From: a plasmid
Sequence record: NZ_CP145108.1
Length of the DNA stretch: 23,228 nucleotides
Strand: one strand, 5' to 3'
Shown: positions 7,635 through 23,228 of the stretch, piece by piece
Numbering within the stretch: the first letter of the stretch is position 1
How the letters are laid out: each line of letters opens with the position of its first letter
The notes under the pieces: model-generated
Seen by the model: only the letters and a program-made list of their open reading frames with translations
What the model was told of the DNA's origin: nothing
The model's database searches: none
Position numbers and translations under genes: made by a program

Positions 7635-7671
7635 TGGCTTATCAGATTAAATAAATTAATAACTTGGAAGT

Positions 7672-8811: not shown

Positions 8812-8833
8812 GGAATTTCCCCATCTCGTATGG

Positions 8834-9191: not shown

Positions 9192-9228
9192 AATGCGCAC
9201 TTACACCCCACTAAATTCTTGTGGGGTA
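9192..9228 (-). other. candidate oriT (MOBQ/RSF1010-like nick region)
   Basis: Minus strand reads ccccacaagaatttagtgggg (inverted repeat) followed by tgTAAGTGCGCatt. RSF1010 oriT has an inverted repeat followed by GGTAAGTGCGCCCT. Located about 90 bp upstream of mobA. Confidence 0.5.
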
Positions 9229-9313
9229 AATCGTGCTAAAATCCTGTATTAGAAGTCGCCGATGGCGACAACAAGGTCAAAACCCATAGAATCAAAGGAA
9301 GACGGTGACTGAC

Positions 9314-11377
9314 ATGGCAATATTCCACATGAGTTTTAGTAATATTAGTGCTGGTAAAGGACGCAGTGCGATTGCCAGTGCCGCTTATCGAAGTGGTGAA
9401 AAGCTATTTGATGATAAGGAAGGTCGCCACTATTTTTATGCCCGATCGATCATGCCAGAAAGCTTTATTTTGACGCCAAAAAATTCACCTGAATGGGCGA
9501 GTGATCGAGAGCAGTTGTGGAATGAAGTTGAAAAGAAAGATCGTAAATCAAACTCACGGTATGCAAAAGAGTTTAACGTGGCTTTACCGGTAGAATTAAG
9601 TGAATCCGAACAGAAAGAATTACTGACAAAATATGTGCAAGAAAATTTTGTTGATGAGGGCATGGTAGCCGACGTGGCAATTCATCGCGACCACCCAGAT
9701 AATCCGCACGCTCATGTGATGTTAACTAATCGGCCGTTTAATTCAGATGGAACATGGGGAATTAAGAGCAAAAAGCAATATATTTTAGATGAGAATGGCA
9801 ATAAAATGTATACCGGAACTAGCAAGTACCCTAAGAGTAGAAAGATACTGATGGTCGATTGGGATAAAAAAGAAAAAATAACTGAATGGCGGCACAATTG
9901 GGCGGCAAGTGTCAATCAGGCTTTAGAGCAAAAAAACATTCCTGATCGGATCAGTGAAAAATCATTTGTGGAACAGGGAATAGCTGACACACCAATGCAA
10001 CACGAGGGAATCAATAGCAAACGGCATGAAAGAAAGGCATTTAATCAACAAGTTAAGAACTATCGTAAGTCCAAAGCTGGCTATAAAAATATGCAGGAGA
10101 AAGTAGTTAATCGAGGCCACTTGGATAGCCTAAGTAAACACTTCTCGTTTAACGAGAAAAAAGTGGTCAAAGAGTTAAGCCACGAACTGAAAACTTATAT
10201 TAGTTTGGAAAGTTTAGATGATAAGCGGCGCATGCTATTTAATTGGAAAAACAGTACCTTAATTAAGCACGCTGTTGGTGAAGATATCACTAAGCAATTA
10301 TTGACGATTAACCAACAAGAAAGTTCACTAAAAAAAGCAGATGAACTCTTAAATAAAGTGGTTGATCGCACAACTAAAAAACTTTATCCAGAGCTTGATT
10401 TTGAACAGACAACCGCGGCTGAACAACGGGAATTGATTAAAGAAACTAATAGTGAACAAACGATTTTCAAAGGCAGTGAATTAAACGAACGTTTAATGAA
10501 TATTCGTGATGATTTATTGACCCGACAATTATTGACCTTTACCAAACGGCCATACGTTGGCTGGAAGTTATTAATGCAACAAGAAAAGGAAGTCAAAATC
10601 GAACTGAAATATACGCTGATGATTCATGACGATAACTTAGAAAGTCTAGAACACGTCGATCAAGGGTTACTAGAGAAATATTCACCAACCGAACAGCAAA
10701 AGATTACTCGCGCAGTCAAAGACCTACGGGCAATCATGGCCGTTAAGCAAGTCATTAAAACGCAATACCATGAAGTATTGAAAAGGGCCTTTCCCAAAGG
10801 CGATTTAGATGGATTGCCATTGATTAAACAGGAACAAGCCTATACAGCCGTGATGTACTATGATCCTGTTTTAAAGCCATGTCAGGCTGAAACAATTGAA
10901 CAGTGGCAAGCAAATCCACCACAGGTGTTCAGTCCCCAAGAACATCAACAAGGACTAGCTTATTTATCGGGACAGCTTAGCTTAGATCAGTTAGAAAATC
11001 ATCACTTACAACGGGTTTTAAAGCATGATGGCACTAAACAACTCTTTTTGGGTGAATGCAAAGCCGATCCGACGATTAAGAACAGTCAGATCGAGAAAAT
11101 CCAAAAGCAGTTAAAAGGGCAACAAGCCAAGGACGACCAGTATAGAAAAGTAAATATTGGACATTATCAACCGCTAAATTACAAGCCAGTTAGTCCAAGC
11201 TACTACTTAAAGACGGCCTTTAGTAACGCAATCATGACCGCCCTATATGCCCGTGATGAAGATTACGAACGGCAAAAACAGGCGCAAGGTTTAAAGGAGA
11301 CTGAGTGGGAAATGACGAAAAAGCAACGGCAACACCAAACTCGAAACCGGCATGAAGATGGGGGCATGCACTTGTAA
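9314..11377 (+). CDS. mobA: MobA/MobL-family relaxase
   Basis: [32 protein letters not shown]-terminus with the catalytic Tyr motif. HxDxxxPHAHVM histidine triad. Long coiled C-terminal domain. Confidence 0.9.
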
Positions 11378-11479
11378 TCACAAAATTAGCGACTGGTTAA
11401 TTGGTATGAATGGTAGCCCATAATGTATTTTATATTGAGAAAAATTTGGTACGTAGAGCGTGCTCGATTAGTTACGTAT

Positions 11480-11958
11480 AGCTGCCAGCCTTGTGTATGG
11501 TCTATCAAAGAGACCAGGTAAACAAAACCTTTAAGCCGGAACCCTATTTTGAACTAAATGCGGAAATTTTAGCTAATCAGCAAGAATTCGTCGCAAAATT
11601 AGACCCCTATCAGCGATTTAAAGACGAAACAGGGCTAATAACATTCATGCAAGCTAAACACGTTCAGAAAGGCTCACAGACTGGTTTAATCAAGGGCATT
11701 CAAAACAAGGCTAAAAAGCGTGCTAGTCCCCAACTATTCTCACTATCCAGTCTCCAGAGTGCCATGAATAAACGTTATCATGCCAGTGCCAGCCAGACTT
11801 TGGCGGCCATTCAGAGTTTATACGAAGACAAACTGCTCAGTTATCCCCGCACCGATTGTGCTTATATCACTGATGAAGAATTTGATTATTTAGTGGCTAA
11901 TCTGACGAAGTATCTGGGGTTGGTCTCTAAGAAGCTGTCCAAGATCTATGCTTTTTGA
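11480..11958 (+). pseudogene. type IA DNA topoisomerase (Topo III-like) internal fragment
   Basis: Contains LLSYPRTDCAYITDEEF, the active-site tyrosine block of type IA topoisomerases. Only about 155 codons are in frame. The 3' end abuts an IS. Confidence 0.55.
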
Positions 11959-11959
11959 T

Positions 11960-12800
11960 ATACTTCTATGTAAAAAGCGAGTTTAAGCTATGAAAAATTA
12001 TCCCAGCAATATTACTCGGCAACAATTTGAATTAATTCGACCAGCTTTAGAAAATTTTCGTAAGCGAACTAAGCCTCGAAAATATGACCTCTACGAGGTC
12101 TTCTGTGCGGTCCTATATGTCTTGAAAACCGGTTGCCAATGGCGTCAAGTCCCCGGTGATTTCCCAGAATGGCGGTCAGTTTACAACTATTACAAAATTT
12201 GGTCAACTAAAGCTGAGCCTACGGCTGATTCTTTATTGGAACAAGTTTTAAAAAAATTGTCATTGCTCGGCGAACTTACCAAGGACGTTCAGCTTTAACT
12301 TCCTTTATTATCGTTGACGCTCAGAGCGTCAAAAACACCGCTACTGCTGAAAACAAAGGTTACGACGCTGGTAAGAAAATCTCGGGGATTAAGCGCCATC
12401 TGGCAGTTGATATCAATGGCTTTCCGCAGGCCATTCACATGACGCGAGCGAACGTCTCTGATCGAGACGGGGCCAGTGCAATGATCGCTTTACATGCCAT
12501 GCATTTACGCCAGGTTCAAAATGTCTTAGTTGATGGTGGTTATTCAGGCGTTAATTTTCAGCTCGATGTAGCCAGTAATTTAAACGCAACCGTGCAGGTT
12601 GCGAAGCGCAATGAGTTGCATCGATTCGAAGTCATGCCCCAACGTTGGGTAGTCGAACGATCTTTTAGTTGGCTAGAGAATTGTCGGCGACTTTGGAAAA
12701 ATTGTGAGCGTCAATTAACCACCAGTCTGCAAATGGTCGTTTTAGCGTTTTTAGCACTATTACTTAAGAGATTTTAGACAGCTTCTAAGTATTTTGACAT
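11960..12800 (+). mobile_element. IS5-family (IS427/IS1031-like group) insertion sequence; boundaries approximate
   Basis: Contains a frameshifted transposase. The ends are inferred from the ORF limits and weak IR similarity only (atacttctatgtaaaa vs atacttagaagctgtctaaaa on the reverse complement). Confidence 0.5.
11990..12777 (+). CDS. IS5-family transposase expressed by programmed -1 frameshift
   Basis: orfA frame 2 (W..R/QWRQVPGDFP motif) ends at 12298. A_AAA_AAA slippery heptamer lies at 12250-12256. After a -1 shift, frame 1 runs on through KKIVIARR...FIIVDAQSVKNTATAENKGYDAGKKISGIKRHLAVD to the DDE C-terminus ending at 12777. Confidence 0.8.
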
Positions 12801-12957
12801 AAACAGGCTTCTCAATGATCATTGAGAAGCCTGTTACTATCTTTATCTAAGTGTGGATTACGTGATAAGTCACAACGATTAATTACAGCCTAAGATAATC
12901 AGAAGAACAATTCCCATTCTAACGTTAGCAAAGGGACCATTTCTAAATAAAAAAGAG

Positions 12958-13116
12958 CGAACACCTGAATGTTTGTGTCTGTAATTCCCAGTAATTTAAG
13001 TGTATTATCTAGTTGAGACATCTATTCCTACCCCGCTTATCTTGAGTTTCGTCGCTTAAAGCATAGCACTAGGGAGGCTTAGATGCCTTTTTTTGTTATC
13101 AAAAAGGGCCTAGTAC
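12958..13116 (-). mobile_element. ISL3-family IS end remnant: terminal IR plus first 21 codons of the transposase
   Basis: Identical over about 150 bp to 23027-23174. Minus strand encodes [21 protein letters not shown], then loses frame. The copy at 23027 continues into an ISL3-type zinc-finger N-terminus. Confidence 0.65.
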
Positions 13117-13411
13117 TTTTGGAATGGAAATACTTTCCAACACCAAAAATTCTAGACCCAATGGTTCCACCACTAATCGTCAAGGTATCGTTCGCAATTT
13201 GCCAAGTGACACCTCCGTCAAGGGTGCCGCTGTTATTGTCCTCTGCTTGGTCTTGAGTGGCAATAGTTGTGATCGGTGATGTTTGGGTCGTGGAAGTGGG
13301 GCTGGTGGCAGCAAAAGCTGGCATTAGAACCCCTGTCAATAATAAAAATGAAGCCCCCACTGAAGCCGCTGCAATTATTAGTAATTGATTCAATTTATTC
13401 GTAAAAAACAA
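13079..13411 (-). pseudogene. secreted or surface protein gene, N-terminal part only, truncated by the ISL3 end
   Basis: Signal peptide (LIIAAASVGASFLLLTGVLMPAFA), then GVTWQIANDTLTISGGTI as in N-termini of LRR/BspA-type Gram-positive surface proteins. The last 7 codons and the stop come from IS sequence. Confidence 0.5.
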
Positions 13412-13658
13412 CTCCCTCTAGAAAAATAGCTTGGTTACCACTCAAAAATTCCCCCGGATTATCGAGTGATCCCTTATCAAAGGAATATAACCTCTTTTTC
13501 GCCATTTATGTTTGGAGAATTGTCCAAAATTTTTCGGCATTTTTTGGAGAAAGCTCTAAAAGAGAATAATCATTAAAAGCGGCCACCGCCAAAGGAATAT
13601 ATCCCTCCCTTTGGCAGCAGTCGCTTTGTTTGAATCAATATTAGCGGGATCTAATCAG

Positions 13659-14462
13659 TTAATACCCCTCCGTTGTAAAGTACCAACGAACGTTGTCCCC
13701 ACTCTTAAGCTTCGTTAAGTTTGAAGCATGGTCAATAAATTTCTTGTTAACACTGAACATCCAACCGGAACCGGCCTTAACGTCATTTTCCTTGAGGCCG
13801 TTAATGCCGTTCACGTAAACGGAGGGGCCCGGAATATAACTAATCTTCAGGTTCGTTTGCTTTAAAATCGAAAACGCGTTGGCGCCCTTTTTAACGCGCA
13901 TCCGCTTCGAATAGAAAACTTTTTTGTATCCATCAACCGTTAAATGGATTTGAATTGTATTCTTAGCATTAGACGACTTTTTAGCCGCATGATGCGTATC
14001 CTGAACCACCTTGGTTTCTGCTTTGTGGTTAATTTTACCCAGCTTATCAGATTTAGGGGCATTTGACCGCTTAGTTTTAGCGACCTTGTTAGGACTTGCC
14101 TTTGCACTGGATCCGGTTGTCCGATTAGTTTTAGCGACCTTGTTAGGACTTGCCTTTGCACTGGATCCGGTTGTCCGATTAGGGCTTGTGCTTGATTGAG
14201 AACTAGCAGTTTGGGGCTTGTTGGCTGTTTTTTGAGCCCGCCTATCTGCTTTTGGTTTTGCTTTGCTTGCACCCTTTGCTTTTTGCTGGTGACTTGGCTG
14301 TTTAAGATGACTTGAACTGGTCGAACTTGAACTTGAAGAAGTCACTTGTTTAGAAGTTGTCGGCTTAGGGGCTGCGTCTCTCGATGAAATCACCTGTTGG
14401 GCACCAAAAGCGATTCCAATTGTGAGAATGAACGCAAGAATGAAGCCAATTGCTTTTTTCAT
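13659..14462 (-). CDS. N-terminally membrane-anchored protein with Ser/Thr/Lys-rich linker and C-terminal DUF4430-like domain
   Basis: N-terminal TM helix. Low-complexity basic linker with an 18-aa tandem repeat. C-terminal segment IHLTVDGYKK ... KKGANAFSILKQ ... YVNGINGLKENDVKAGSGWMFSVNKKFIDHASNLTKLKSGDNVRWYF has the DUF4430 pattern (related to the transcobalamin beta-domain). Confidence 0.65.
   Translation of the reverse strand: MKKAIGFILAFILTIGIAFGAQQVISSRDAAPKPTTSKQVTSSSSSSTSSSHLKQPSHQQKAKGASKAKPKADRRAQKTANKPQTASSQSSTSPNRTTGSSAKASPNKVAKTNRTTGSSAKASPNKVAKTKRSNAPKSDKLGKINHKAETKVVQDTHHAAKKSSNAKNTIQIHLTVDGYKKVFYSKRMRVKKGANAFSILKQTNLKISYIPGPSVYVNGINGLKENDVKAGSGWMFSVNKKFIDHASNLTKLKSGDNVRWYFTTEGY
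14071..14178. repeat. perfect tandem duplication, 2 x 54 bp
   Basis: ttagttttagcgaccttgttaggacttgcctttgcactggatccggttgtccga occurs at 14071 and again at 14125. It encodes NRTTGSSAKASPNKVAKT twice. Confidence 0.85.
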
Positions 14463-14496
14463 ATTGTTTTGTCACTTCTCACTCAAAATTTGGCGA

Positions 14497-15543
14497 TTAA
14501 TTAATCGTGTAAACTGAACGATTCTTTAAAGCAGCTTTATAAGCGGCAACCGCTAAATTTACCTGACCGACACCATAGAGCTGAGTAGCTGCGTTTTTAA
14601 TTGAACCGGATTTATTGACATAGGTCAGCATTGCATAAAGCGGCGTCCTAGTTTGACTTGTTTTCATCGCCGTGTTATTCACATATTTCTTCATGCCAAA
14701 ATCATTTGATAGGGCAATAATTGCTTCAGCGGTTGAATTGGCATTTGGCGTTGTTTTGTCATTAAACGTGTAGCCAAATGCACCACTGGGCTGCACAATA
14801 CCAGTAAGAAATTTTTGCCCCTTCAGCAAGCTGTCCTTGACGTTAGTTGTATTAACCTTTCCTCGAGCCAGACCGGTTAGAACCATGCTGGTCGTGTCGG
14901 CATCCCTAACTCCTTGTTGGTTATTATACGTCCAACCGTGATTATTTAATTGAGCTTTCACTAGCCGAGCACTCAAGCTTGCTTTGCTAAACTTCGCTCC
15001 CTTTGGCTGCTTGAACTTTGAGCTCATCGAAATGGCAATCAGCACTTGTGCCTGGGCACTTGTCGTTTGTTTGGAAACACTTGTCCGGTACAACTTGGTT
15101 ACCAGATTGATTCCCTTTTTGTGGCCATATGGCTTATAATCTCTAGCGTTGAGCCCCATCGCCTGAACGGCCATCACGGCATTGGCCATTGTTGCAGCAG
15201 GGGTTGTCTTTTTGATTACCAAGTTTTTTCGCAGCAACGTTTTTTCCTTGGTATTAAATTTATAACCGTTTCCCTTGAGCCCTAACAGAAAGTCAGAGTA
15301 CCCCGCAGCCGCACCAGTATCAGGATTGAGTTTCTTACTAAAAATAGAACTGCTTTGACCGGAAAGTCCGGTCTTATTTTCTTTAATCATCTTTTTGGCA
15401 TAGGAATAAGTACGGGCAATTCTGCTGTGAATGGTGCTGGTACTAGCCTTCCTAATTGACGCAGCGTTGGTAGTTGTTGAGAGCGTCAAAGCGGCGATAA
15501 CCAAAGTTGCAGAAGTCAAGACTGATTTTATATATTTATTCAT
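14497..15543 (-). CDS. secreted protein, tentatively alpha/alpha-toroid (prenyltransferase/squalene-oxidase-repeat-like) fold
   Basis: AAGGAG RBS. Signal peptide ending TTTNAAS. Repeated G(W/F)xY ... (D/N)(T/A)TSM(V/A)L(T/A)GL-type segments (NNHGWTYNNQQGVRDADTTSMVLTGL; SGAFGYTFNDKTTPNANSTAEAIIAL) are reminiscent of terpene-cyclase-like repeats. N-terminal 60 aa are paralogous to the N-terminus of the next gene. Confidence 0.45.
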   Translation of the reverse strand: MNKYIKSVLTSATLVIAALTLSTTTNAASIRKASTSTIHSRIARTYSYAKKMIKENKTGLSGQSSSIFSKKLNPDTGAAAGYSDFLLGLKGNGYKFNTKEKTLLRKNLVIKKTTPAATMANAVMAVQAMGLNARDYKPYGHKKGINLVTKLYRTSVSKQTTSAQAQVLIAISMSSKFKQPKGAKFSKASLSARLVKAQLNNHGWTYNNQQGVRDADTTSMVLTGLARGKVNTTNVKDSLLKGQKFLTGIVQPSGAFGYTFNDKTTPNANSTAEAIIALSNDFGMKKYVNNTAMKTSQTRTPLYAMLTYVNKSGSIKNAATQLYGVGQVNLAVAAYKAALKNRSVYTIN

Positions 15544-15630
15544 AGGTGTGATCTCCTTAGATAATGCATAAAAGTGGCTGGGGCCTCATTTCCCCCCAAC
15601 CACTTTGATATTTGATTGTTAGATGAAGAA

Positions 15631-17133
15631 TTACTTATTGTAGGTCATCGAAATTGAATCGCCATCTTTCAAAGTATAAACACCCATCGATGAACCAGGT
15701 TCGGTGCCATTAACTGAGTAGAGCCAGCCAGTCATCGTACCGGCCGGACCGGCGTTAAACCCATTGATCCCGGTAACATAAGCGGTCGCCCCGGATCCTG
15801 TATAGGTTAAAGCTAACCCTTTCTGTTGGGCAAAGGCTTGTAACGCATCAAACGCAGTGGCTCCCTTCTTAACTTTGACGCTGCCACTTGCGATGGTCGC
15901 CCCATCGGCATGAATACTAATAGTGGTTGTGATGGTTTTAGCATCGTTTGATGGCGTAACAGGATTTGTGGGTGCCACTGGCAAAGTTGGCGTGGCACTA
16001 GGTGAATTATTAGTAGTTGTGGTTGTCCCTGTGGCTGTCCCCGTCGTTGCCGTCGGCTTAGAGCTTGTCGTCGTTGTCGTAGTCGCTGTTGACCCTGAGT
16101 TAGTCGGTGGGGTACTCGTTGACGTCCCTGTGGTTGTGGCCGTAGGTGTGCTTGGACGAGTATTTTGGGAGCTCTTCTTGATCTTAGTAGCCAAGATGAG
16201 CTTCTTGTTAGCAGTGATGTAGCGGCCATTTGTAAGTTGCATCCGGTTGGAACGCCCATAGTTAACAACTTTTCTGACGCTTAATGACGCATTCTTTTTA
16301 ACGTGGCGCTTCTTGCTCGTTAAGTTAACCTTACCATACTCGTTGATTCCCTTAGGATTGATGACTTTAATGCGGGTCACCTTTGCGGAATAGTAGGCGT
16401 GGGCAAAATACTTTGAACCAGAAAGCGTATAACCGGTTTTGCCTGAATTCATGTCCTTTACTCGATAGATCGCATGGCCCTGTTTATTAGTTTGTTGGCT
16501 AATCACCAGAAACATTGGGCGATTAACTCGAGCTCGCTTTGGATAGGTCTTGATCAGACTTGATTTAGTAAAATTCGAGTTTCTATATAATTTAATGGTT
16601 GTCAGTGCATATACAACTGACCGCTGTCTTGCCTTTTTAACGGGCTTCTTGGAAACAGTCGGCTTACTTGTCGGCGAACTACTGGATGAAGAAGCAGGTG
16701 TCGCTGCTGAGGAACTCGCTGCAGTAGAAGAACTGGCAGGATTATTTGCATCCTTTACAATGTCAGCAACTAAATTCTTACCATTCACATTAGTTGGATC
16801 TTTGCCGATTGCCACCAAACCATTGACGGCAGAAACATCAGAGATCCCGTTTAACCCTTGACTGCCACCACTGAGAAAGTCGTTATTCTTAAGAATTGAT
16901 TTGTAAGCATATTGAGCCTGCAAATCAGTAATGCCGTTGTCCCCAAACACTAAACATGTGGCATCCCAAGCATCAATTTGGGACCCTCGTTGTGTGATCT
17001 CCGTTAACCCAGTGGAAATTGCCGAATTGACGTCTGATGCTGTATCAGCCCTGGCTGAATTACCACCACTGAAAAATATCAGAAAAATCCCTAATACAAT
17101 TGAAAGCCAATATAGAAATTGTTTTCTTTTCAC
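15631..17133 (-). CDS. secreted multidomain surface protein: N-terminal module, Ser/Thr-rich linkers, basic cell-wall-binding-like middle domain, C-terminal DUF4430-like domain
   Basis: GTG start with GGGGAG RBS. Signal peptide. Poly-S/T tracts. Lys/Arg-rich middle (RVKDMNSGKTGYTLSGSKYFAHAYY ...). C-terminus IHADGATIASGSVKVKKGATAFDALQ ... YVTGINGFNAGPAGTMTGWLYSVNGTEPGSSMGVYTLKDGDSISMTY matches the DUF4430 pattern. Confidence 0.7.
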   Translation of the reverse strand: MKRKQFLYWLSIVLGIFLIFFSGGNSARADTASDVNSAISTGLTEITQRGSQIDAWDATCLVFGDNGITDLQAQYAYKSILKNNDFLSGGSQGLNGISDVSAVNGLVAIGKDPTNVNGKNLVADIVKDANNPASSSTAASSSAATPASSSSSSPTSKPTVSKKPVKKARQRSVVYALTTIKLYRNSNFTKSSLIKTYPKRARVNRPMFLVISQQTNKQGHAIYRVKDMNSGKTGYTLSGSKYFAHAYYSAKVTRIKVINPKGINEYGKVNLTSKKRHVKKNASLSVRKVVNYGRSNRMQLTNGRYITANKKLILATKIKKSSQNTRPSTPTATTTGTSTSTPPTNSGSTATTTTTTSSKPTATTGTATGTTTTTNNSPSATPTLPVAPTNPVTPSNDAKTITTTISIHADGATIASGSVKVKKGATAFDALQAFAQQKGLALTYTGSGATAYVTGINGFNAGPAGTMTGWLYSVNGTEPGSSMGVYTLKDGDSISMTYNK

Positions 17134-17208
17134 TACTGAACGCTCCCCAAAACAAATTTAACGGTCGTTAACCGCTATTAATGCTGGACTGGTTAGACTT
17201 TCTGCAAC

Positions 17209-17241
17209 ACAAAAAAGCCTAGCTAGTACCCTAGCTAGAGC
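17209..17241 (-). terminator. intrinsic terminator-like hairpin inside the 5' leader; candidate riboswitch expression platform
   Basis: Minus strand reads ctagctag ggta ctagctag followed by gcTTTTTTgtg. It sits between the aptamer and the GTG start at 17133. Confidence 0.55.
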
Positions 17242-17353
17242 CATCTTCTATCATTAATAACTAACGTCCGACATTTTTGGGCAGACTAATCCCGGAAAGT
17301 TTATTATTAATTGACAAAGTCGACCCTAAGAAACTTTGCAATCAGTATAATAA

Positions 17354-17480
17354 GCGTCTCCTGACTTGATCTCATCCCCAAATGTCTTCTTCCCGGCTTT
17401 AGCCAGTGAGTTGCGACATTTCAGTCAATCTTACAGTAGCGAAGGGGCTGTAAAGGCTTTTCACCTTTTTCCTGTTCATT
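17354..17480 (-). ncRNA. cobalamin (AdoCbl-type) riboswitch aptamer
   Basis: Minus strand carries, in canonical order: AACAGGAAAAAGGUGAAAAGCC, CAGCCCCUUCGCUACUGUAAG, CACUGG, GGGAAG, and B12-box-like AAGUCAGGAGACGC. These match the conserved GGUGnAAnUCC / CnGCCCCCGCnACUGU / GCCACUG / GGGAAGGC / AGYCMGGAGAC blocks of the cobalamin riboswitch. The 3' end of the B12 box departs from CCUGCC. Confidence 0.7.
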
Positions 17481-17499
17481 ATACTTTCTAACATTAATC

Positions 17500-17535
17500 A
17501 TTATAGCATGGCGCGCGTTTGTTTAGAAGGGGGCT
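17500..17535 (-). promoter_or_regulatory. candidate promoter for the riboswitch-led operon
   Basis: Minus strand has TGcTATAAT (extended -10, plus coordinates 17500-17508) with a weak TTCTAA -35 seventeen bp upstream. Confidence 0.4.
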
Positions 17536-17544
17536 ACGAAGTCC

Positions 17545-18396
17545 TTGTACATCTATCGGAAATACGCTTTTAAAATTCGCCAGATAGCCCCGCAATCATC
17601 CGCGCAATCTCGGGTTGACCTCAGTCGCATTCAGGCCTCACCACAAGTGCTGGGATTAATCCTCAGCTACTATGTGAACTATGGCATCTCCGCTGCCAAG
17701 ACTGCCGCGTTAATGTACGACATCCATGGCATCAAGATTTCCAAGCAAACCATTCTCAATTACGCACAAGCCGTGGCGGCCAATGTTCGACCCTTCCTGG
17801 ATAATTATCCGTATCAGCTTTCCAGCCAATTGGTGGGTGACGAAACTTATCTGCGCGTGAAAGGAAAATGGCACTATCTGTTCTACTTCTATGACGTGAA
17901 CAAAAAAATTATCCTGGCAGATTACGTGACCCCCAAGCGAACCACTGAATCAGCGTGCATCGCGATCTATCAAGTCCTCAAAAAGTATCAAGTGATTCCT
18001 GAGAACCTGCGGTTCACGGTTGACGATAATCCCATCTATCGAGTGGCCAGACTATATTATGCACATCAGGAAGGCATCAACTTCGACCTTAATATCGTTA
18101 AAGGCTTAACCAACGAAACCGAGGTGGCGAAGGAATATCGCCCCGCCAAGCAAACCATTGAACGCTTAAATCGCTCACTGAAAGCTAATTATCGCCCAAT
18201 GGGGGGCTTTAAGTCAGCCAGCGGCTCTATCACTTACGTGACGCTGTATTCACTCTGCCATAATTTTTTACGGCCCCATCAAAGTCTGGGATACCATCCA
18301 CCAGTTGAAGTTCCTGAATTAACGGGACTTACCCGCATGCCAGACAAGTGGTTGAGACTCATCAAACTCGCTCAAGAACAGCTACCAATTGCTTGA
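17545..18396 (+). CDS. DDE transposase, distant IS6-family-like
   Basis: Blockwise resemblance to IS26/IS257 Tnp: YGIS HTH region, VGDETYLRVKGKWHYLFYFYD (compare HMDETYVKVNGRWAYLYRAVD), FTVDDNP, QTIERLNRSLK, GFKS. Longer than typical IS6 Tnp. Start codon uncertain. High-GC gene. Confidence 0.55.
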   Translation: MYIYRKYAFKIRQIAPQSSAQSRVDLSRIQASPQVLGLILSYYVNYGISAAKTAALMYDIHGIKISKQTILNYAQAVAANVRPFLDNYPYQLSSQLVGDETYLRVKGKWHYLFYFYDVNKKIILADYVTPKRTTESACIAIYQVLKKYQVIPENLRFTVDDNPIYRVARLYYAHQEGINFDLNIVKGLTNETEVAKEYRPAKQTIERLNRSLKANYRPMGGFKSASGSITYVTLYSLCHNFLRPHQSLGYHPPVEVPELTGLTRMPDKWLRLIKLAQEQLPIA

Positions 18397-18804
18397 TTTT
18401 GGTAATTGGAGCCCGGTGGTTCTTTATCGTCAAATGGCGGTAGCGAACACTTGACAAGCCGAAAAGCCAATGGGTTAAACTTAAATGACCCGAGGCTTAT
18501 TTAAGTGGCCTTGATTTCGTCTAACCATCGCCTCGGCACCGCTGAGCCAACCCATTGGCCGGCTTGTCAGGTGCATTTGACGATTACGACCACGTAGTAG
18601 ACTGCAAACCTGAATGGAAACTATATTAGAATCTACTTTTTCATGGAACTTTGGACATTACCGATTTCCTAACGTTTATAGTTTAGCACTGGAAAACCCA
18701 AAAGGTGTCTGACAGCACTTGGTATTAGCCACCATACAAAAAATCCCCATTCAGTCCGAAAACTGATGAGGATCGTCACGCAAAACTTATTAATTTAACC
18801 ATGA

Positions 18805-18933
18805 TTACTTCTGTTGGCCTTTCAATACCGAATTCCAGAAAAGACGTGAATTCAAATCATCTTTCAAGGTTCCTGAACGGCGATTCTTTCTTTCAGTGGT
18901 TCTTGCAAATAAATTCTTCAAAGTCTTTGGCAT
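18805..18933 (-). CDS. small basic ORF of 42 aa with a strong Shine-Dalgarno sequence; function unknown
   Basis: Minus strand AAGGAGG 8 nt upstream of ATG (MPKTLKNLFARTTERKNRRSGTLKDDLNSRLFWNSVLKGQQK). Intergenic location between the IS6-like gene and the ECF operon. Confidence 0.3.
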   Translation of the reverse strand: MPKTLKNLFARTTERKNRRSGTLKDDLNSRLFWNSVLKGQQK

Positions 18934-19395
18934 AAAACATTCCTCCTTGGTCAATTCTATGAAGCTTATCAATCTTCTCTCTACTAAGTAGTATAGCGCT
19001 ACTGTCGACCAGGGAGATAGTAATATGCTTATAAAATTTACCAAAGCAAAGCCCCGACACGGATGACTTTTTCCGCCTCGGGATGTTGCTTGAAGGATGT
19101 TGCAGCTTTTGCTTTCAATGATTTTCAGAAAGTTATTTACGTGTTAACCACCTCGCTTGTTCGGATGAACCCGTATAAATGACAGCTTAGCAGGTCACGG
19201 TAAATTTAGTGTAAAAATGGTGTAAAAAGGCTGTACATAATATCCAAAAGGTGATAAATCAGTTCGCAAATTTCACCATTTAAAAACGCCTCAAAATAAT
19301 ACTAGCCACCACACAAGATATGCCGTTTACCACCCTTGGCAACGATGATATACTGTTGGAAGGGCTTACTAACCCTTAGAAAGTCGGGATTTTCC

Positions 19396-20367
19396 ATGAC
19401 ACACACCCCAATCAAGATGACGTTTTTTTCGCAGCTTCATCCAGTAGCGCTCACGCTGTACTTTACTGAGCTGATCGTCTGCCTCCTGCTGTTTAATCAC
19501 GTGGCGGTCGCGGTGGCTGAGTTCATCGCGCTCACGATCACAGCCACCTACTACCTTGGCGGCCGAAAGACGGCGCGCCAACTGAAATACGCCGTTTCAT
19601 TTCTATTAATGATTCTATTTTTCAATACGCTCCTCAATCAAAAGTTTCCGCCGATTCTTTGGCATTTCAAATGGGGCATTCTGACGTTCAAATTTTCGTA
19701 TCCGGCATTTCTGTACGGCATTGCGATGGCAATTGTCCTGATCGCAATGCTGTTTGTTTTTTCAGTCCTAAACGCGGTTCTGACCCCCAGCAAGCTGATC
19801 TACGTGTTCTCGCCGATTGTGCCCCGGCTGGCAGTACTGGTCACCATTTCGTTTACGCTGGTCACCAGCTTCACCGATAGGCTCAAACGGATTTTGCGCC
19901 TGCAAAAAACCCGCAACGTCGACGTGGTTAATGGATCATTGAAGACCCGCACCCAAAAGACGCTCCACATCTTCGAAATTCTTCTGCAGGACGCCCTGTC
20001 TTCTGCGATGGAAACCGCCAATTTAATGGACGCCCGCGGATTTGGCGCCGCCAAGCGGACCCACTACCGCTCGTATCACTGGCAGTTTAGTGACCTGCTG
20101 TTCATCACGATTGCCACCGTCATGCTAGTTGCAACTATCGGCGTCCGGATTCTTTCAATGGGCACCAGTCGTTCAGTCGCCAATTTCACCACCATTTTTA
20201 CGCCGGGCGATACTTGGCCCATCGTCGTCACGGCACTCCTATTCTTACTACCATTAATCTCAGAGGGGTCTATCGTTCATGCAAAAATTAGCTACCGTGA
20301 CCCATCTCACGTTCACCTATCCCGATCAATCAACCCCCGTTCTGGACGACGTCAACTTCACCATTGA
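19396..20367 (+). CDS. ecfT: ECF transporter transmembrane (T) component, CbiQ/EcfT family; start uncertain
   Basis: Multi-TM protein with the EcfT signature Ala-Arg-Gly region (ETANLMDARGFG). The longest ORF starts at 19336, the ATG at 19396 is used here, and 19420 is also possible. The C-terminal 30 codons overlap the ATPase gene. Confidence 0.7.
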   Translation: MTHTPIKMTFFSQLHPVALTLYFTELIVCLLLFNHVAVAVAEFIALTITATYYLGGRKTARQLKYAVSFLLMILFFNTLLNQKFPPILWHFKWGILTFKFSYPAFLYGIAMAIVLIAMLFVFSVLNAVLTPSKLIYVFSPIVPRLAVLVTISFTLVTSFTDRLKRILRLQKTRNVDVVNGSLKTRTQKTLHIFEILLQDALSSAMETANLMDARGFGAAKRTHYRSYHWQFSDLLFITIATVMLVATIGVRILSMGTSRSVANFTTIFTPGDTWPIVVTALLFLLPLISEGSIVHAKISYRDPSHVHLSRSINPRSGRRQLHH

Positions 20368-21943
20368 CCCCGGCGATTTTATTGTGATTGCCGGTAATAC
20401 CGGCAGTGGCAAGACGACCCTGCTTAACCATTTGAAAAGGGAGCTCATGCCCAAAGGAGCCCGAACTGGTGACGTTCAAATTGCCGAAACACCGGTTGCT
20501 GACATGCCGAAGTTGGTGAGTGCCCAAACCGTCGGCTATGTGGCCCAAGATCCACAAACCCAGCCGGTGATGGCAACGGTGATCGAAGAACTGGCCTTCC
20601 CATTAGAAAATATTGGCTGTCCCAGCAATGAAATCGAACGCCGGATTACCGAACTGGCAAATTTCTTAGGTTTGGATCAAAACCTCGATCGCCAAATACA
20701 TCAATTATCCGGCGGCCAGCTTCAGTTGGTAAACCTGGCTTCGGTTCTCATCTTGCGCCCAAAATTAATTTTACTGGACGAACCCACGTCCCAGTTGGAT
20801 CCGCTGACCGCTCAGCATTTTCTCACCGTTTTAGGGCGGATTAATCAAGAATTAGGGATTACAATTATGTTGACTGAACACCGGCTGAGCACGGTAGCAG
20901 CCATGGCCAACCGGATGATTCTCCTGCAGGATTACCACCTGACCTTTGACGGTGATCCCCACAGCGGCTTGGCAAAAATGGCCACTGATGCCCACTTGAC
21001 CTATTTCGTACCGTCAATTCCCAAGCTCTTCTTAGATCAACAGATTCGAACCTCCCAATTGCCGATTTCAGTAGCCGATGCCCAGTCGGCGATTCGGACT
21101 CACCATCTTCAATTTCAATCAGTGACGACCGGCGGCAAGGTTGCGCAATTACCCCCAGCCGAAAAACCAATTCTAACCGTCAATAACATTTCCTTTAGCT
21201 TCGACGGCCAACATAACGTCCTCCATCACCTGAACCTGGCGATTAATCCCGGTACGTGGTTGGCAATTGTCGGCAAAAACGGCTCCGGCAAATCAACCCT
21301 GTTAACGCTGATTTGTGGACTAATGACGCCGCAGCACGGCAAAATTCGTTTCGTCCACCAGTTAGTTTGGAAAATGGCCATTAACCAGCGAATGGCCAAA
21401 CTGGCATTTCTATCGCAAACTCCCCGTCTCCAATTTACAGCCGATACCGTTCGTGAGGAGCTGGAAGTTCAGGCGGCTGAATTACGGTTGCCAGACGCTA
21501 AGGCCCAAGTTGACCATATGATTAATCAATTTCATTTGAACCGTATTGAGAAACAAAATCCATTTGACATTAGTGGCGGCCAACAACAGCTGGTTGGATT
21601 AGCAATCGCACTGATGGCGACCCCTGATCTGTTGGTTCTGGACGAGCCAACCAAGGGACTGGATCCCTACACCAAAATTCAGGTGGGCAACCTGCTGAAA
21701 CAGTACCAACAAGCCGGTATGACCATTGTGATTGCCAGCCACGACATGGAATTCTGTGCTAAATTTGCCGACAAATGCACGTTTATGTTTGATGGCCATC
21801 TCAACACGCTGCTTGCCACGCAATCATTTTTTGCCGATAACTTTTTCTTCACCACGCCAATTAACCGGATTGCCCGTGATCAGGTTAAGGACGCCCTACT
21901 GCCAGTCGATCTGAAGCTGGCGAACCATCCAGAAAGGGGGTGA
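20279..21943 (+). CDS. ecfA: fused tandem ECF ATPase (EcfA-EcfA' in one polypeptide)
   Basis: Two complete ABC cassettes. Walker A GNTGSGKTT and GKNGSGKST. Signatures LSGGQLQ and ISGGQQQ. Walker B/D-loops LLDEPTSQLD and VLDEPTKGLD. AGAGGGG RBS. Confidence 0.85.
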   Translation: MQKLATVTHLTFTYPDQSTPVLDDVNFTIDPGDFIVIAGNTGSGKTTLLNHLKRELMPKGARTGDVQIAETPVADMPKLVSAQTVGYVAQDPQTQPVMATVIEELAFPLENIGCPSNEIERRITELANFLGLDQNLDRQIHQLSGGQLQLVNLASVLILRPKLILLDEPTSQLDPLTAQHFLTVLGRINQELGITIMLTEHRLSTVAAMANRMILLQDYHLTFDGDPHSGLAKMATDAHLTYFVPSIPKLFLDQQIRTSQLPISVADAQSAIRTHHLQFQSVTTGGKVAQLPPAEKPILTVNNISFSFDGQHNVLHHLNLAINPGTWLAIVGKNGSGKSTLLTLICGLMTPQHGKIRFVHQLVWKMAINQRMAKLAFLSQTPRLQFTADTVREELEVQAAELRLPDAKAQVDHMINQFHLNRIEKQNPFDISGGQQQLVGLAIALMATPDLLVLDEPTKGLDPYTKIQVGNLLKQYQQAGMTIVIASHDMEFCAKFADKCTFMFDGHLNTLLATQSFFADNFFFTTPINRIARDQVKDALLPVDLKLANHPERG

Positions 21944-21950
21944 GTGTTAC

Positions 21951-22661
21951 TTGAAACAATCTTCGTTACTCAACCGGTATCGGTTATTAATTGCGTTACT
22001 GTTAATGTTTATTTTTCTGCTATTCATTGTCTTATTGAAGGGAAAGCACTACCTATTATTTAGCTTTATGTGCCTAATCTGTAGCCTTTTACCCGCGTAC
22101 TGGCGCTTCGAACACGATCCAATCAGCACCCAAACGTTGATGTTTGTCGCCGTTTTGATCGCGTTGGCGGTTGCCACCCGGGTCCCACTGGGCGCCATTC
22201 CTGGTGTGCAGGGAGCCAGCTTCGTCGTAATTCTAAGCGGTGTCAGTCTCGGCCCGGAACTGGGCTTTATCACAGGATCTACCACGGCACTGGTTTCCAA
22301 CATGTTTATGGGTCAAGGACCATGGACGCCTTGGCAGATGGTCGCCTGGGGCTTAATGGGGTTAACCGCTGGCCTCTTCATGAAGGCCCGATTGTCCCAT
22401 AGTCTGATTTTTATGATCGTGTTTGCCTGCGTCTGGGGCTATTTGTTTGGCTGGATCATGGACCTCTGGTACGCCCTGGCCTACGTATCACCGCTGACCA
22501 TCAAGAGTTTTATCTTGGCTTTTGCGGCCAGTTTCTTTCCATTTGACACGTTCCACGCAGCATCCAATGCCTTTCTCATCGCGCTATTTTACAAACCATG
22601 GGAGAAGCTGTTTCACCGCTTAGTCACCAAATACAATATTTTACCGGATAAAAACCAATAG
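21951..22661 (+). CDS. ECF transporter substrate-specific (S) component
   Basis: 236-aa, six-TM small integral membrane protein immediately after ecfA (TTG start, GGGGTG RBS). General S-component architecture. Specificity cannot be assigned from sequence alone. Confidence 0.55.
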   Translation: MKQSSLLNRYRLLIALLLMFIFLLFIVLLKGKHYLLFSFMCLICSLLPAYWRFEHDPISTQTLMFVAVLIALAVATRVPLGAIPGVQGASFVVILSGVSLGPELGFITGSTTALVSNMFMGQGPWTPWQMVAWGLMGLTAGLFMKARLSHSLIFMIVFACVWGYLFGWIMDLWYALAYVSPLTIKSFILAFAASFFPFDTFHAASNAFLIALFYKPWEKLFHRLVTKYNILPDKNQ

Positions 22662-22680
22662 AAAAAGGATGGATTAATCA

Positions 22681-22890
22681 ATGAAATTAACATCAAAGCT
22701 ACTCATGATCTCTGCTTCAACCCTATTAGGATTTGGCAGTATCGCACCAGCCTTCACCGCCAATGCAGCCAGCGTTAAGACCGCCAGTCGTGCTTATCAA
22801 AATAGCAAGATCAAAGCCAACTACCGTTACGCGAAGAATCTGATGATTAAAAACAAGACCGGATTGTCAGGCAAGACGACCGCGACATGA
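22681..22890 (+). pseudogene. 5' fragment of a paralogue of the 14497-15543 / 15631-17133 secreted proteins, truncated by the ISL3 remnant
   Basis: Signal peptide, then [18 protein letters not shown], compare YAKKMIKENKTGLSGQSS in the 348-aa protein. The reading frame runs into antisense ISL3 transposase sequence at about 22890. Confidence 0.55.
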
Positions 22891-23184
22891 GTGAGCTTGT
22901 GTCCGTTAGGGTGCAACGTATTGTATCCACAGCTGGGACAGCGCCTGAGTGTGTAGGTAAGCTCTGCCTGGATGACCAAATACTTTTTGCGACCCGAGCC
23001 CCGACCATGAAATTCCTCACGAGTACCGAACACCTGAATGTTTGTGTCTGTAATTCCCAGTAATTTAAGTGTATTATCTAGTTGAGACATCTATTCCTAC
23101 CCCGCTTATCTTGAGTTTCGTCGCTTAAAGCATAGCACTAGGGAGGCTTAGATGCCTTTTTTTGTTATCAAAAAGTACTAGGCC
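22890..23184 (-). mobile_element. ISL3-family IS remnant: terminal IR plus N-terminal about 65 codons of the transposase
   Basis: Minus strand encodes [65 protein letters not shown] (ISL3-type N-terminal zinc-finger). The 23027-23174 stretch is identical to 12958-13105. The element is cut off internally at about 22890. Confidence 0.65.
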
Positions 23185-23228
23185 CTAATTTAAAAAGCCA
23201 TTGATAATGGATCAAAAACGGCCAATAG

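Follow-up and report, generated by a model that had tools for sequence, protein, structure and literature searches.

Architecture of the plasmid and its cargo slot

The window, by which we mean the whole stretch of 23,228 nucleotides analysed here (sequence record NZ_CP145108.1), is a circular, mobilizable plasmid of the RepA_N/ParM/zeta/MobQ type. Its circularity is evident because the alignments to p4 of L. plantarum and pDH5 of L. kefiri run unbroken over its end/start join, and the relaxase, a MobQ protein, bears out the mobilizability claimed in an earlier note on this DNA. Comparison with pLBN-6 places a variable cargo slot between mobQ and the resolvase-parM junction, and it is here that about 14.5 kb of IS-scarred DNA (11873-23228 plus 1-3148) has built up, the island considered below included. 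Neither the exact plasmid nor its island-free form is present in PLSDB.

The left edge of the accretion zone is formed by an IS5-family, ISLpl3-like element with a split transposase frame (11926-12786, plus strand; ORFs 11990-12298 and 12439-12777; 97.9% identity to the IS5 element of pDH5), and backbone homology with other plasmids stops at 12786-12789. Adjacent to it lies a 171-bp orphan fragment (12787-12957) that in other plasmids precedes a cupin gene and that matches pLDW-12 of P. inopinatus and another region of pDH5 at 98-99%; the match stops at 12958, where the fragment meets the left IS1165 stub in a deletion junction. At the right edge, what remains of the resolvase gene native to the backbone, its C-terminal part (3149-3498, plus strand; repeat D1, 91%), stands directly upstream of parM, collinear with the resolvase-parM arrangement of pLBN-6. 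A full-length serine recombinase (resolvase) gene at 87-671 (plus strand; PF00239, PF02796), with 90-93% identity to the genes of p4, pDH5 and pLBN-6, came in with the cargo, and resolvase is thus present twice on the plasmid.

Gene content and composition of the two modules

Two modules, which meet at 17544/17545, make up the island (13160-22883). Module A (13160-17544, minus strand) is a surface-protein operon headed by a full-length match to the cobalamin riboswitch aptamer (17336-17503, minus strand; Rfam RF00174, 72.4 bits against a gathering score of 31.5, E = 2e-16). A terminator-like hairpin followed by a T run (17218-17239, minus strand), placed between aptamer and start codon, probably provides the expression platform for an OFF switch. 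The first gene under this control (15631-17133, minus strand) encodes a 500-aa surface protein with DUF5776 (PF19087, E = 2e-18) and a C-terminal DUF4430 (PF14478, E = 5e-13), whose relatives measure 740-810 aa. The second (14497-15543, minus strand) specifies a putatively secreted protein of 348 aa that RefSeq labels 'fucose-binding lectin II' and that has no sequence match in Pfam, NCBIfam or the PDB. Its AlphaFold2 model (pLDDT 82) predicts an (alpha/alpha)6 barrel, for which Foldseek retrieves terpene cyclases, GH105 enzymes, transcobalamin (4zrp_B, E = 5e-4) and intrinsic factor (3kq4_A); judged from the modelled fold, the protein may serve as the alpha subunit in a split binder of transcobalamin type. 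Its nearest chromosomal relative, from L. otakiensis, shares 73% identity. The third gene (13659-14462, minus strand), which contains a 54-bp tandem duplication at 14063-14170 (repeat D4), encodes a putatively secreted protein with a C-terminal DUF4430 of the transcobalamin beta-domain family (PF14478, E = 5e-15). Transcobalamins are described as carrying DUF4430 as their C-terminal domain (PMC4350170). Acting together at the cell surface, the module A products would make up a split binder resembling transcobalamin, the DUF5776-DUF4430 protein being predicted to associate with the wall.

A 110-codon ORF at 13079-13411 (minus strand), with an N-terminus that looks signal-peptide-like by eye, has a native part at 13160-13411 and draws its final 27 codons from IS1165. 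No intact homologue was found in PLSDB or among 5.8 billion proteins, the database relatives consisting exclusively of IS-fused forms of 107-112 aa; truncation by the IS is plausible.

Module B (17545-22883, plus strand) begins with a 5'-truncated DDE transposase gene (17545-18396, plus strand), which retains 283 of about 440-460 codons and an IS6/IS240-like domain (PF13610; NF033587 scores under its cut-off). The gene marks the junction with module A: it is full-length in pMF1298-5 and p47-5, homology to the window begins at 17547, and in other relatives ISLre2 is inserted exactly at 17544/17545. There follow, all on the plus strand, genes for an ECF transporter T component (19396-20292; GC3 64%), so annotated in pDH5, p47-5 and pMF1298-5 at >99% nucleotide identity, for a fused A-A' ATPase with two ABC_tran domains (20279-21943; TIGR04520 above and TIGR04521 just under the cut-off), and for an S component of 236 aa (21951-22661; PF07155, PF12822). 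The S component is a distant relative of B12-specific CbrT, matching PDB 6FNP chain A with E = 1.8e-9; that entry is ECF-CbrT, the vitamin B12 ECF transporter of Lactobacillus delbrueckii (PMC5997447). Judged by this homology, the substrate of the module would be B12; against this count that no riboswitch of the ECF module's own was found and that heme was proposed for a homologous operon of L. sakei. The module closes with a gene for a barrel-protein paralogue that is reduced to its first 68 codons (22681-22883, plus strand). Homology to the full-length genes, which encode 347 aa and are intact in L. kefiranofaciens, L. helveticus and L. parafarraginis, stops at 22883, where the paralogue is cut off at an internal point of IS1165. 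The earlier note's statement that IS ends truncate genes for secreted proteins on both sides is thus secure on the right (68 of 347 codons) and plausible on the left. Its assignment of the cargo to B12 acquisition is sustained by the cobalamin riboswitch, the two DUF4430 domains and the CbrT-like S component.

The division into two modules, rather than one segment of one composition, follows from differences in GC3 and in nearest relatives. The backbone core (3499-11958) has 37.5% GC, with genes at 31-43% where the earlier note had estimated 25-38%. The island stands at 45.8%, made up of a surface operon at 44.0% (42-45% in the note), ECF genes at 48-51% and a DDE gene at 47%, for which 50-55% had been given. 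GC3 rises from 33.7% in the backbone through 43.5% in the surface operon to 58.8% in the ECF genes, every pairwise comparison being significant (chi-square, p < 1e-7). In 1-kb windows, GC separates the island from the rest (Mann-Whitney p = 0.001), but the Markov-corrected tetranucleotide signature is deviant in the ECF part only, which correlates with the backbone at r = 0.09-0.16; the two backbone halves correlate mutually at 0.35, and the surface operon with the backbone at 0.30-0.31. The proposed contrast between island and backbone therefore stands for GC and GC3, with the amendment that it comprises two compositions. IS fragments at 1500-2330 are GC-rich as well, so high GC is not exclusive to the island.

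IS1165 stubs and the palindrome beside the resolvase gene

A perfect direct repeat of 149 bp (100% identity, one pair) recurs at 12958-13106 and 23027-23175, 1 bp past the coordinates of the 150-bp end reported earlier; chance recurrence of an exact 149-mer within 23 kb is impossible. Its attribution to the ISL3 family was correct: the repeat matches IS1165, an ISL3-like element found in more than 300 Lactobacillaceae plasmids. IS-derived DNA extends past the repeat on both sides, and what brackets the island are two unequal stubs rather than symmetrical ends. The left stub (12958-13159, minus strand; 202 bp, IS positions 1340-1541) is 100% identical to IS1165 of Leuconostoc pLm1 up to the IS end at 13159 and holds the first 21 transposase codons, the leader and a genuine terminal inverted repeat (IRL, 13133-13159, minus strand; GGGTCTAGAATTTTTGGTGTTGG). 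With the inverted repeats defined from the 1541-bp copy in L. helveticus, this IRL is the sole terminal inverted repeat match within the window. The right stub (22884-23175, minus strand; 292 bp, IS positions 1197-1488; 99.7% to pLm1 IS1165, 100% to that of p4) retains the first 69 transposase codons, not the 21 previously ascribed to both ends, and lacks the outer 53 bp as well as either inverted repeat. The left stub thus turns its true IS end toward the island and the right stub an internal breakpoint.

The outer end of the right stub bears the scar of a deletion that reached into an inverted copy of the same 53-bp terminus, 10 bp of which survive at 23176-23185 (plus strand; TACTAGGCCC; inverted repeat I1). 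In three other plasmids, pLBN-6 among them, the inverted 53-bp terminus is complete and delimits the resolvase module on its left, and in pCUR341 a direct IS1165 end adjoins the spot bordering that module. About 45 bp outside the right stub, upstream of the resolvase gene, lies a palindrome (CCAATAGGGTATACCCTATTGG; left arm 23222-23228, right arm 1-16) that is a putative res crossover site. In a comparison covering two relatives, p4 and pDH5, there are 0-2 mismatches over 22601-23228 plus 1-12, followed by 7-10% divergence with the first mismatch at 13. The end of the shared DNA at the palindrome argues that res-site recombination contributed in addition to the IS.

Spread, assembly and known counterparts of the unit

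A 10-kb block of vitamin-B12-scavenging genes circulates among food and gut lactobacilli. The ECF genes of module B recur at 99% identity, on small contigs (9-54 kb), in 13 or more species from 5 Lactobacillaceae genera, and a 97% copy resides in a chromosomal scaffold of L. helveticus (DSM 20075). The nearest chromosomal relative of module B (79%) belongs to Lentilactobacillus parafarraginis and lies beside a pdu operon, with the ECF, barrel and eutP genes convergent with genes for FMN reductase, phosphatase, PduO, BMC and PduG; a plasmid of L. kefiranofaciens retains the oxidoreductase, phosphatase and BMC genes. The search for a chromosomal source thus yielded a related locus, but no ECF gene donor above 80% identity was found, and the source lineage is accordingly approximate. 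That the segment is foreign and horizontally mobile, as the earlier note had held, is upheld by the cross-genus identity, the L. helveticus chromosomal copy and the pdu-linked Lentilactobacillus relatives.

In relatives, IS1165 copies mark the borders of the unit. The L. helveticus island has a complete 1541-bp IS1165 on its left, which is the only testable copy and shows no target duplication (flanks ACTTTTTT and AATGGTTC), and on its right a stub with the window's internal breakpoint and a normal outer end. Breakpoint 22884 is joined to a truncated eutP there and to barrel-gene codon 68 in the window, two different partners that a simple one-step history does not predict. In pDH5, which carries the same unit with an identical right junction, the left IS1165 is nearly full, lacking some 175 bp at the far end (IRR) and interrupted by ISLpl3. 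An L. kefiri contig covers exactly 13160-22883. In p4, which lacks the island, a full-length IS1165 occupies the right-hand position next to resolvase-asnB, and its outer junction is the same scar as in the window (100% identity over 345 bp).

The best explanation as a whole, which we consider rather probable, is that a two-module corrinoid-scavenging unit with a dedicated ECF transporter (13160-22883) was integrated by IS1165/IS1165 recombination, underwent deletions and was further shaped by a res step; IS-mediated capture of a foreign B12 island is thereby retained in part, with resolvase recombination as an additional contributor. Modules A and B would derive from chromosomal loci of Lentilactobacillus-type heterofermenters, the module B locus lying beside a B12-dependent pdu operon. 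The unit would have borne an IS1165 copy inserted next to the small secreted-protein ORF and entered new replicons by recombination of that copy with a resident IS1165 in direct orientation. An event of cointegrate or circular-unit type would leave two directly oriented copies, the left keeping the donor's true end adjoining the ORF, the right keeping the recipient flank, in which IS1165 may already have lost its outer 53 bp against the inverted repeat bordering the resolvase module. Subsequent deletions would have pared the copies down, to 202 bp on the left and 292 bp on the right, and taken the rest of the second barrel gene together with eutP. Since the palindrome is where nearly complete identity to p4 and pDH5 breaks off, recombination at res by the resolvase is suggested to have joined the block to the resolvase region of the present plasmid. 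No targeted conservative mechanism is known for the ISL3 family; RecA-dependent and transposase-made recombination would look alike in sequence. No intermediate, neither a circular unit nor a single-IS form, was observed. RecA-dependent recombination between the 149-bp repeats could still excise the 10,069-bp unit as a circle.

A share in the right-hand junction could also be read as the whole event, a serine recombinase alone having swapped the block between plasmids at res, with the IS1165 stubs as passengers. The stop of near-identity inside the palindrome, the duplicated resolvase gene, the different cargo that pLBN-6 bears in the same slot beside the same resolvase module, and the fixed point at which homology upstream of resolvase starts in many plasmids all fit this reading. 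Nevertheless, we consider it unlikely: a res event accounts for the right edge only, with a truncated IS1165 abutting an unrelated fragment on the left; on the L. helveticus chromosome the unit is flanked by IS1165 on each side, and the 21.6-kb locus around it gave no match to resolvase; and the L. kefiri contig breaks precisely at the IS borders.

Less probable again is a classical compound transposon, in which two IS1165 moved the intervening genes via their outermost ends and later decayed. IS1165 sequence does flank the unit on both sides, the left copies are fuller in pDH5 and L. helveticus, and the unit is found in different replicons, but no relative has a right-hand copy with both ends bordering the island, and the right outer junction pre-exists without the island in p4, which recombination into a resident IS fits better. 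Compound transposition is likewise not indicated by the complete left copy of L. helveticus, the one testable copy, given its missing target duplication. Hardly credible, finally, is that the compositional contrast reflects amino-acid content and expression of membrane and surface proteins rather than foreign origin, and that the repeat is an assembly duplication. The surface proteins are indeed rich in Ser, Thr, Ala and Pro, giving a GC2 of 44-52%, and the surface operon is as near to the backbone in Markov-corrected tetranucleotides as the backbone halves are to one another. Yet the largest contrast falls at third codon positions (34% vs 59%), the DNA is 99% identical across several genera and also chromosomal, and the two-stub structure recurs, with different outer flanks, in the independently assembled complete pDH5; cross-genus identity, chromosomal copy and GC3 already contradict this account.

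As mobile-DNA mosaics go, the window is an ordinary one, with junctions readable in unusual detail. IS1165, an element of Leuconostoc and lactobacilli, occurs in many plasmids in copies that match the stubs at 99.7-100%, and the left stub retains a genuine terminal inverted repeat; the stubs differ in being without transposase coding, the right one without any inverted repeat. The L. brevis plasmid pLBN-6 has the identical backbone order resolvase-parM-parR-repA-TA-mobQ at about 93% identity and a variable region between mobQ and resolvase, as in the cargo-slot mosaicism of Lactobacillaceae RepA_N/MobQ plasmids. Its slot, however, holds a KxYKxGKxW surface-protein gene and only a solo 53-bp IS1165 terminus, whereas the window carries B12 cargo and a second resolvase.

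As regards the cargo, bacterial transcobalamin-like SLBB plus alpha/alpha-toroid proteins were described by Burroughs et al. 2007 (PMC1796856), and heme import was proposed for lsa1836-1840 of L. sakei (bioRxiv 10.1101/864751), an ECF operon that includes genes for transcobalamin-like subunits, alpha and beta. The window shares with that operon the ECF S, ATPase and T genes and separate, secreted-looking alpha-toroid and beta (DUF4430/SLBB) proteins; it differs in its plasmid location between IS remnants and in having its binder genes duplicated, with a set of them in an operon of its own under riboswitch control, where a DUF5776 wall-binding protein is added. With ECF-CbrT (PDB 6FNP; PMC5997447) it has in common a detectably homologous S component and an ECF architecture with T and A components. 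The L. delbrueckii ECF module is shared with other S components (PMC5997447), while that of the window is dedicated, is operon-encoded with a fused A-A', has an S component of 236 rather than 182 aa and a presumptive substrate, and is coupled to secreted-binder genes. In its mobility, the unit resembles IS26-type pseudo-compound transposons and translocatable units, exemplified by the IS1216E-flanked Tn7086 (PMC13055272): directly oriented IS copies surround cargo without target duplication, the same block occurs beside a resident IS copy in unrelated replicons, and loss or gain of a circle via the repeated IS is possible. The window is distinguished by an IS of the ISL3 family with both copies reduced to inert stubs, and by an integration that may have been plain homologous recombination.

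IS1165 remnants around a composite cargo

The segment at 13160-22883 is very probably horizontally acquired cargo bracketed by insertion sequence (IS) remnants. It has features of a genomic island, namely deviant composition and near-identical copies in distant hosts (99%; 97% in L. helveticus), and features of a pseudo-compound structure, with directly oriented IS copies around the cargo and no target duplication. The only long direct repeat bracketing the region, 12958-13106 and 23027-23175 (149 nt, 100% identity), belongs to the ISL3-like element IS1165. Alignment of the window to the 1541-bp L. helveticus IS1165, on which the inverted repeats were defined, and to the copy of the Leuconostoc plasmid pLm1 reveals that IS-derived DNA extends beyond this repeat, in stubs that are 99.7-100% identical to IS1165 over 202 and 292 bp. 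The left stub (12958-13159) reaches the true element end with its terminal inverted repeat (IRL), and the right stub (22884-23175) begins inside the transposase gene and ends 53 bp before the element end. The earlier note had described a 150-bp identical ISL3 end, co-oriented on both sides of the island. The orientation was borne out, the transposase start lying on the minus strand in both stubs, and the repeat is exact, but the stubs are longer than it and are not equivalent, since the left one meets the island with its true end and the right one with an internal breakpoint. On their outer sides the stubs end in an internal truncation at 12958 and a deletion scar at 23175/23176. The single inverted-repeat match in the window lies in the left stub (13133-13159), the right stub being without any, and 21 and 69 N-terminal transposase codons are left, with no intact DDE transposase gene; both IS1165 copies are remnants, not elements.

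The compositional contrast between island and backbone, which that note had drawn from spot counts, is real, although the counts overstated both extremes. By windowed and per-gene GC, the backbone core stands at 37.5% and the segment 13160-22883 at 45.8%; inside the segment, the surface-protein operon (in module A, minus strand, 13160-17544) has 44.0% and the ECF genes (in module B, plus strand, 17545-22883) have 49.7%. The GC3 values of 33.7% (backbone), 43.5% (surface operon) and 58.8% (ECF) differ in every pairwise comparison (p < 1e-7), and the island thus consists of two compositional classes rather than one. GC and GC3 are not uniform, but the tetranucleotide signature, corrected for lower-order composition, deviates in the ECF segment only.

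Borders of the unit and the route of its acquisition

An intact ISL3 copy at one of the border positions, for which a search had been proposed, is found in the L. plantarum plasmid p4: full-length IS1165 occupies the right-hand position there, with the same scarred outer junction followed by resolvase and asnB, no island, and 100% identity to the window over 345 bp. The L. kefiri plasmid pDH5 has the same 13160-22883 unit with identical IRL/ORF and right junctions; its left IS1165 lacks only ~175 bp at the far (IRR) end and is split by ISLpl3. One L. kefiri draft contig spans exactly 13160 to 22883. On the L. helveticus chromosome, a complete IS1165 borders the unit on its left side, and on its right side lies a stub with the same internal start as in the window and a normal outer end. 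That stub adjoins a truncated eutP, where the window has codon 68 of a barrel-protein gene, so the internal breakpoint is the same in two lineages with different neighbours. The unit lies next to a pre-existing IS copy in several replicons (the window, pDH5 and the L. helveticus chromosome), p4 representing an unoccupied right-hand IS. A further internal IS1165 position recurs where a remnant lies by a small secreted ORF (window 13042; 5001 in p47-5, locus L002; 13574 in pMF1298-5, locus L003; also loci L010 and L015), and its flanks differ: a GH25 lysozyme gene in p47-5, a different serine recombinase gene in pMF1298-5, L010 and L015. An intact version of the secreted ORF on the left was sought by tblastn in PLSDB and among 5.8 billion proteins, and only the same IS-fused forms turned up.

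Movement as a compound transposon, with two IS1165 copies mobilizing the DNA between them, does not fit these borders. The truncation at 12958 and the scar at 23175/23176 leave no usable outer IS ends, L. helveticus shows no target duplication around its intact left copy, and the left copy keeps a donor flank while the right one has a flank that pre-existed elsewhere. The ISL3 family is not known to use transposase-dependent targeted integration. Direct orientation, absence of target duplication, donor flank on the left with pre-existing flank on the right, and recurrence on plasmid and chromosome alike fit an integration in which a unit carrying one IS1165 copy would recombine with a resident IS1165 in shared sequence, with deletions following. 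Exchange mediated by the plasmid resolvase would account for where recent identity ends on the right, though not for the chromosomal copy of L. helveticus. We consider it somewhat probable that IS1165 recombination, deletions and a contribution of the resolvase site acted together.

A more specific role of the transposase was considered for the shared internal breakpoint. It lies 346 bp from the IS1165 left end, and of the internal sites scanned it agrees best, in matching orientation, with the opening 21 nt of the opposite inverted repeat (13/21, rank 1/3036); the rank drops to 72 at 30 nt, the length of the compared stretch having been picked post hoc. Because the scan was post hoc, use of such pseudo-ends by the transposase, with an IS1165 left end that would be more than a plain inverted repeat, is regarded as rather unlikely, although their use in adjacent deletions would explain the shared breakpoint. 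If true, IS1165 would yield miniature elements and adjacent deletions with fixed breakpoints, and the B12 cargo would pass between lactobacilli as a unit that depends on IS1165, not via chance recombination.

The outer right junction retains traces of its own. The final 53 bp of the IS1165 left end form a self-contained near-palindrome, GGGTCTAGAATTTTTGG...CCAAAAGTACTAGGCCC. In plasmids of P. acidilactici, C. crustorum and L. brevis (pLBN-6), the resolvase module opens with this 53-bp terminus in inverted orientation and the flanks diverge up to its first base; in L. curvatus pCUR341, a direct-orientation IS1165 end adjoins the same spot by the resolvase module. The window, p4 and pDH5 share the junction ...ATCAAAAAG|TACTAGGCCC|TAAT..., which we infer to be the leftover of a deletion that ran from one AAAAG repeat to the other in two termini facing each other. 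With its inverted repeat lost in the scar, the right-hand IS copy is immobile. Inverted repeat I1 of the window could be read as a 9-bp "inversion" involving both IS ends, a reading rejected in view of the full inverted 53-bp termini beside resolvase genes in other plasmids. Across related loci (L071 1475-1527, L072 1463-1515, L075 11427-11481, L073 ~405-457), the terminus occurs solo or with the IS body, in both orientations and always a few bp from the same point upstream of resolvase genes, which looks like an insertion hot spot or else a miniature element. Upstream of the resolvase gene in the window, a 22-nt palindrome, CCAATAGGGTATACCCTATTGG (23222-23228 plus 1-16), is a putative res crossover site. 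Relative to p4 and pDH5, the stretch running from 22601 across the join to position 12 shows 0-2 mismatches; from position 13 on, in the right arm of the palindrome, differences set in and amount to 7-10% through the resolvase gene.

At the junction of the two modules (17544/17545), the riboswitch leader joins a DDE transposase gene at about codon 156, and the window is without ~4.5 kb (cob operon and 5' part of the DDE gene) present in p47-5 and pMF1298-5. ISLre2, whole or partly deleted, sits exactly at this position in pDH5, L. kefiranofaciens and L. helveticus. The simplest reading is that ISLre2 inserted into a window-like ancestor of these other lineages, with deletions from ISLre2 following; being simpler, it displaced an ISLre2-mediated deletion in the window itself.

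The plasmid slot and the source of the cargo

The backbone encodes a resolvase, ParM, a RepA_N-type RepA, a RelB/zeta pair and a MobQ relaxase, and hundreds of Lactobacillaceae plasmids are similar to it at 91-95% identity. PLSDB holds neither the exact plasmid nor an island-free version, and none of its records covers at least 80% of the backbone. Alignments of p4 and pDH5 continue unbroken over the 23228/1 join, so the window behaves as a complete circle; one additional G at the join, compared with both plasmids, could be an artefact of circularisation. Two copies of the resolvase gene are present (325-624 and 3149-3448, 91% identity), the one directly upstream of parM being a truncated C-terminal remnant. 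Since the sole resolvase of pLBN-6 occupies the place directly upstream of parM, the backbone's own gene in the window is the remnant at 3149-3498, and this comparison indicates that the full-length copy came in with the cargo. The variable slot, delimited by comparison with pLBN-6, accordingly comprises 11873-23228 plus 1-3148; in pLBN-6 it is occupied by a different surface-protein gene. Its further content (704-2330, 2455-3045, 11491-11958) includes DDE_5 transposase fragments, a frameshifted IS5-family element (48-52% GC), a GH8 glycosidase gene and a topoisomerase gene. Elsewhere on the backbone, three direct repeats of ~58 nt each lie in the repA reading frame (6260-6434) and a 52-nt repeat pair (6858-6909 / 7055-7106) straddles the repA end; they are probably iteron-like origin repeats. 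The PLSDB record NZ_CP101853.1 (46,560 bp, labelled Xanthomonas oryzae) matches like the Limosilactobacillus panis plasmid NZ_CP081856.1 (46,566 bp) and is probably mislabelled or a contaminant.

Copies of the ECF ATPase gene with 99% identity occur in at least 13 species belonging to five genera (Lactobacillus, Lentilactobacillus, Levilactobacillus, Secundilactobacillus and Companilactobacillus), all on 9-54 kb contigs, and a 782-kb scaffold of L. helveticus bears one at 97%. The next relative, from L. parafarraginis, is at 79%; its ECF genes, barrel gene and eutP run convergently towards the terminal part of a pdu operon (FMN reductase, tyrosine phosphatase, PduO, BMC, PduG), and no plasmid or IS genes were found near that locus. 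A L. kefiranofaciens plasmid retains oxidoreductase, phosphatase and BMC genes beside eutP, tying module B to a pdu-type chromosomal locus. In L. hilgardii, L. farraginis and Levilactobacillus, remoter versions on the chromosome (48-53%) are arranged canonically as ECF T-AA-S, barrel protein, DUF4430 protein, and the nearest relative of the barrel protein in the riboswitch operon is a chromosomal gene of L. otakiensis (73%). By these relationships, the donor would be Lentilactobacillus-like. The source lineage sought in the earlier note is thereby located approximately, the best ECF match beyond L. helveticus being that at 79%.

Only two PLSDB records cover at least 80% of the island, and no description of this plasmid island was found in the literature. 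Rearranged versions occur in p47-5, pMF1298-5 and eight draft genomes, among them a barrel-gene hybrid and an additional S-component-cobS-phosphatase operon. In pMF1298-5-type loci (L003 11297-11318; also L008, L010-L015), the two barrel paralogues have recombined to one hybrid (window 22863 joined to 15391), so that the DUF4430 gene comes after the ECF operon. Extra corrinoid genes adjacent to the island in p47-5 (11485-13889) and pMF1298-5 (2654-5298, 314-850) encode a second ECF S component, CobS, a histidine phosphatase and a PduO-type adenosyltransferase; the window version is thus a reduced derivative.

Corrinoid uptake and relation to known systems

Module A is headed by a cobalamin riboswitch (RF00174; 72.4 bits against the Rfam gathering threshold of 31.5), covering the full model (positions 1-189) on the minus strand, 200 nt upstream of the gene at 15631-17133 and followed by a terminator-like hairpin. 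The operon encodes, in order, a DUF5776-DUF4430 protein, a 348-aa protein (14497-15543) without family match and a DUF4430 protein. DUF4430 (PF14478), present in two island proteins, is the C-terminal domain of transcobalamins (PMC4350170). Sequence searches of PDB, Pfam and NCBIfam gave no match for the 348-aa protein. Its AlphaFold2 model (pLDDT 82) is an (alpha/alpha)6 barrel, for which Foldseek returned transcobalamin and intrinsic factor (E = 5e-4 to 6e-3), terpene cyclases and GH105 enzymes scoring equally; the predicted fold match is informative but not specific. With the DUF4430/SLBB domains of its neighbours, the barrel protein is a candidate alpha-toroid partner in a split transcobalamin-like binder. 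The low-complexity part of the DUF4430 gene contains a 54-bp tandem duplication (14063-14170, 96% identity) and the DUF5776 protein has 500 aa in the window versus 740-810 aa in relatives, so repeat-number variation touches the surface proteins.

Module B encodes, on the plus strand, a 5'-truncated DDE transposase gene, an ECF T component identified via annotation in relatives, a fused A-A' ATPase (TIGR04520 above cut-off, TIGR04521 slightly below) and an S component matching chain A of PDB 6FNP, the L. delbrueckii B12 transporter ECF-CbrT (E = 1.8e-9); the final ORF consists of the initial 68 codons of a barrel-protein paralogue (22681-22883). A search for a second cobalamin riboswitch ahead of the ECF operon, made with permissive thresholds in the window and also in five to six related loci, found none, so it is from homology and linkage that we infer B12 to be the substrate. 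Of what the earlier note put forward, the observation largely holds, and the IS-mediated capture of a foreign B12 island is borne out in part: horizontal acquisition and IS bracketing stand, and the B12 part is an assignment of this kind.

A near-identical block for putative corrinoid scavenging has moved among kefir, sourdough, beer and gut lactobacilli and also onto a chromosome, which bears on B12 competition in fermented foods and on plasmid-conferred traits of starter and spoilage strains. The history of the plasmid is readable from its junctions, with three kinds of scar within one 14.5-kb slot: IS recombination, deletion between two facing inverted repeats, and a breakpoint at the resolvase site. 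Current understanding is unchanged by it. SLBB-plus-toroid surface proteins of bacteria were described in 2007 (PMC1796856). In L. sakei, a homologous ECF operon has transcobalamin-like alpha and beta subunits encoded separately after it, and heme uptake was proposed for it (bioRxiv 10.1101/864751). Cargo bracketed by IS copies was already on record for mosaic lactobacillus plasmids, as were ECF operons that include transcobalamin-like binders, and the present case is understood as pseudo-compound, IS-bracketed cargo of such a plasmid, carrying an ECF/transcobalamin-like operon of known type.
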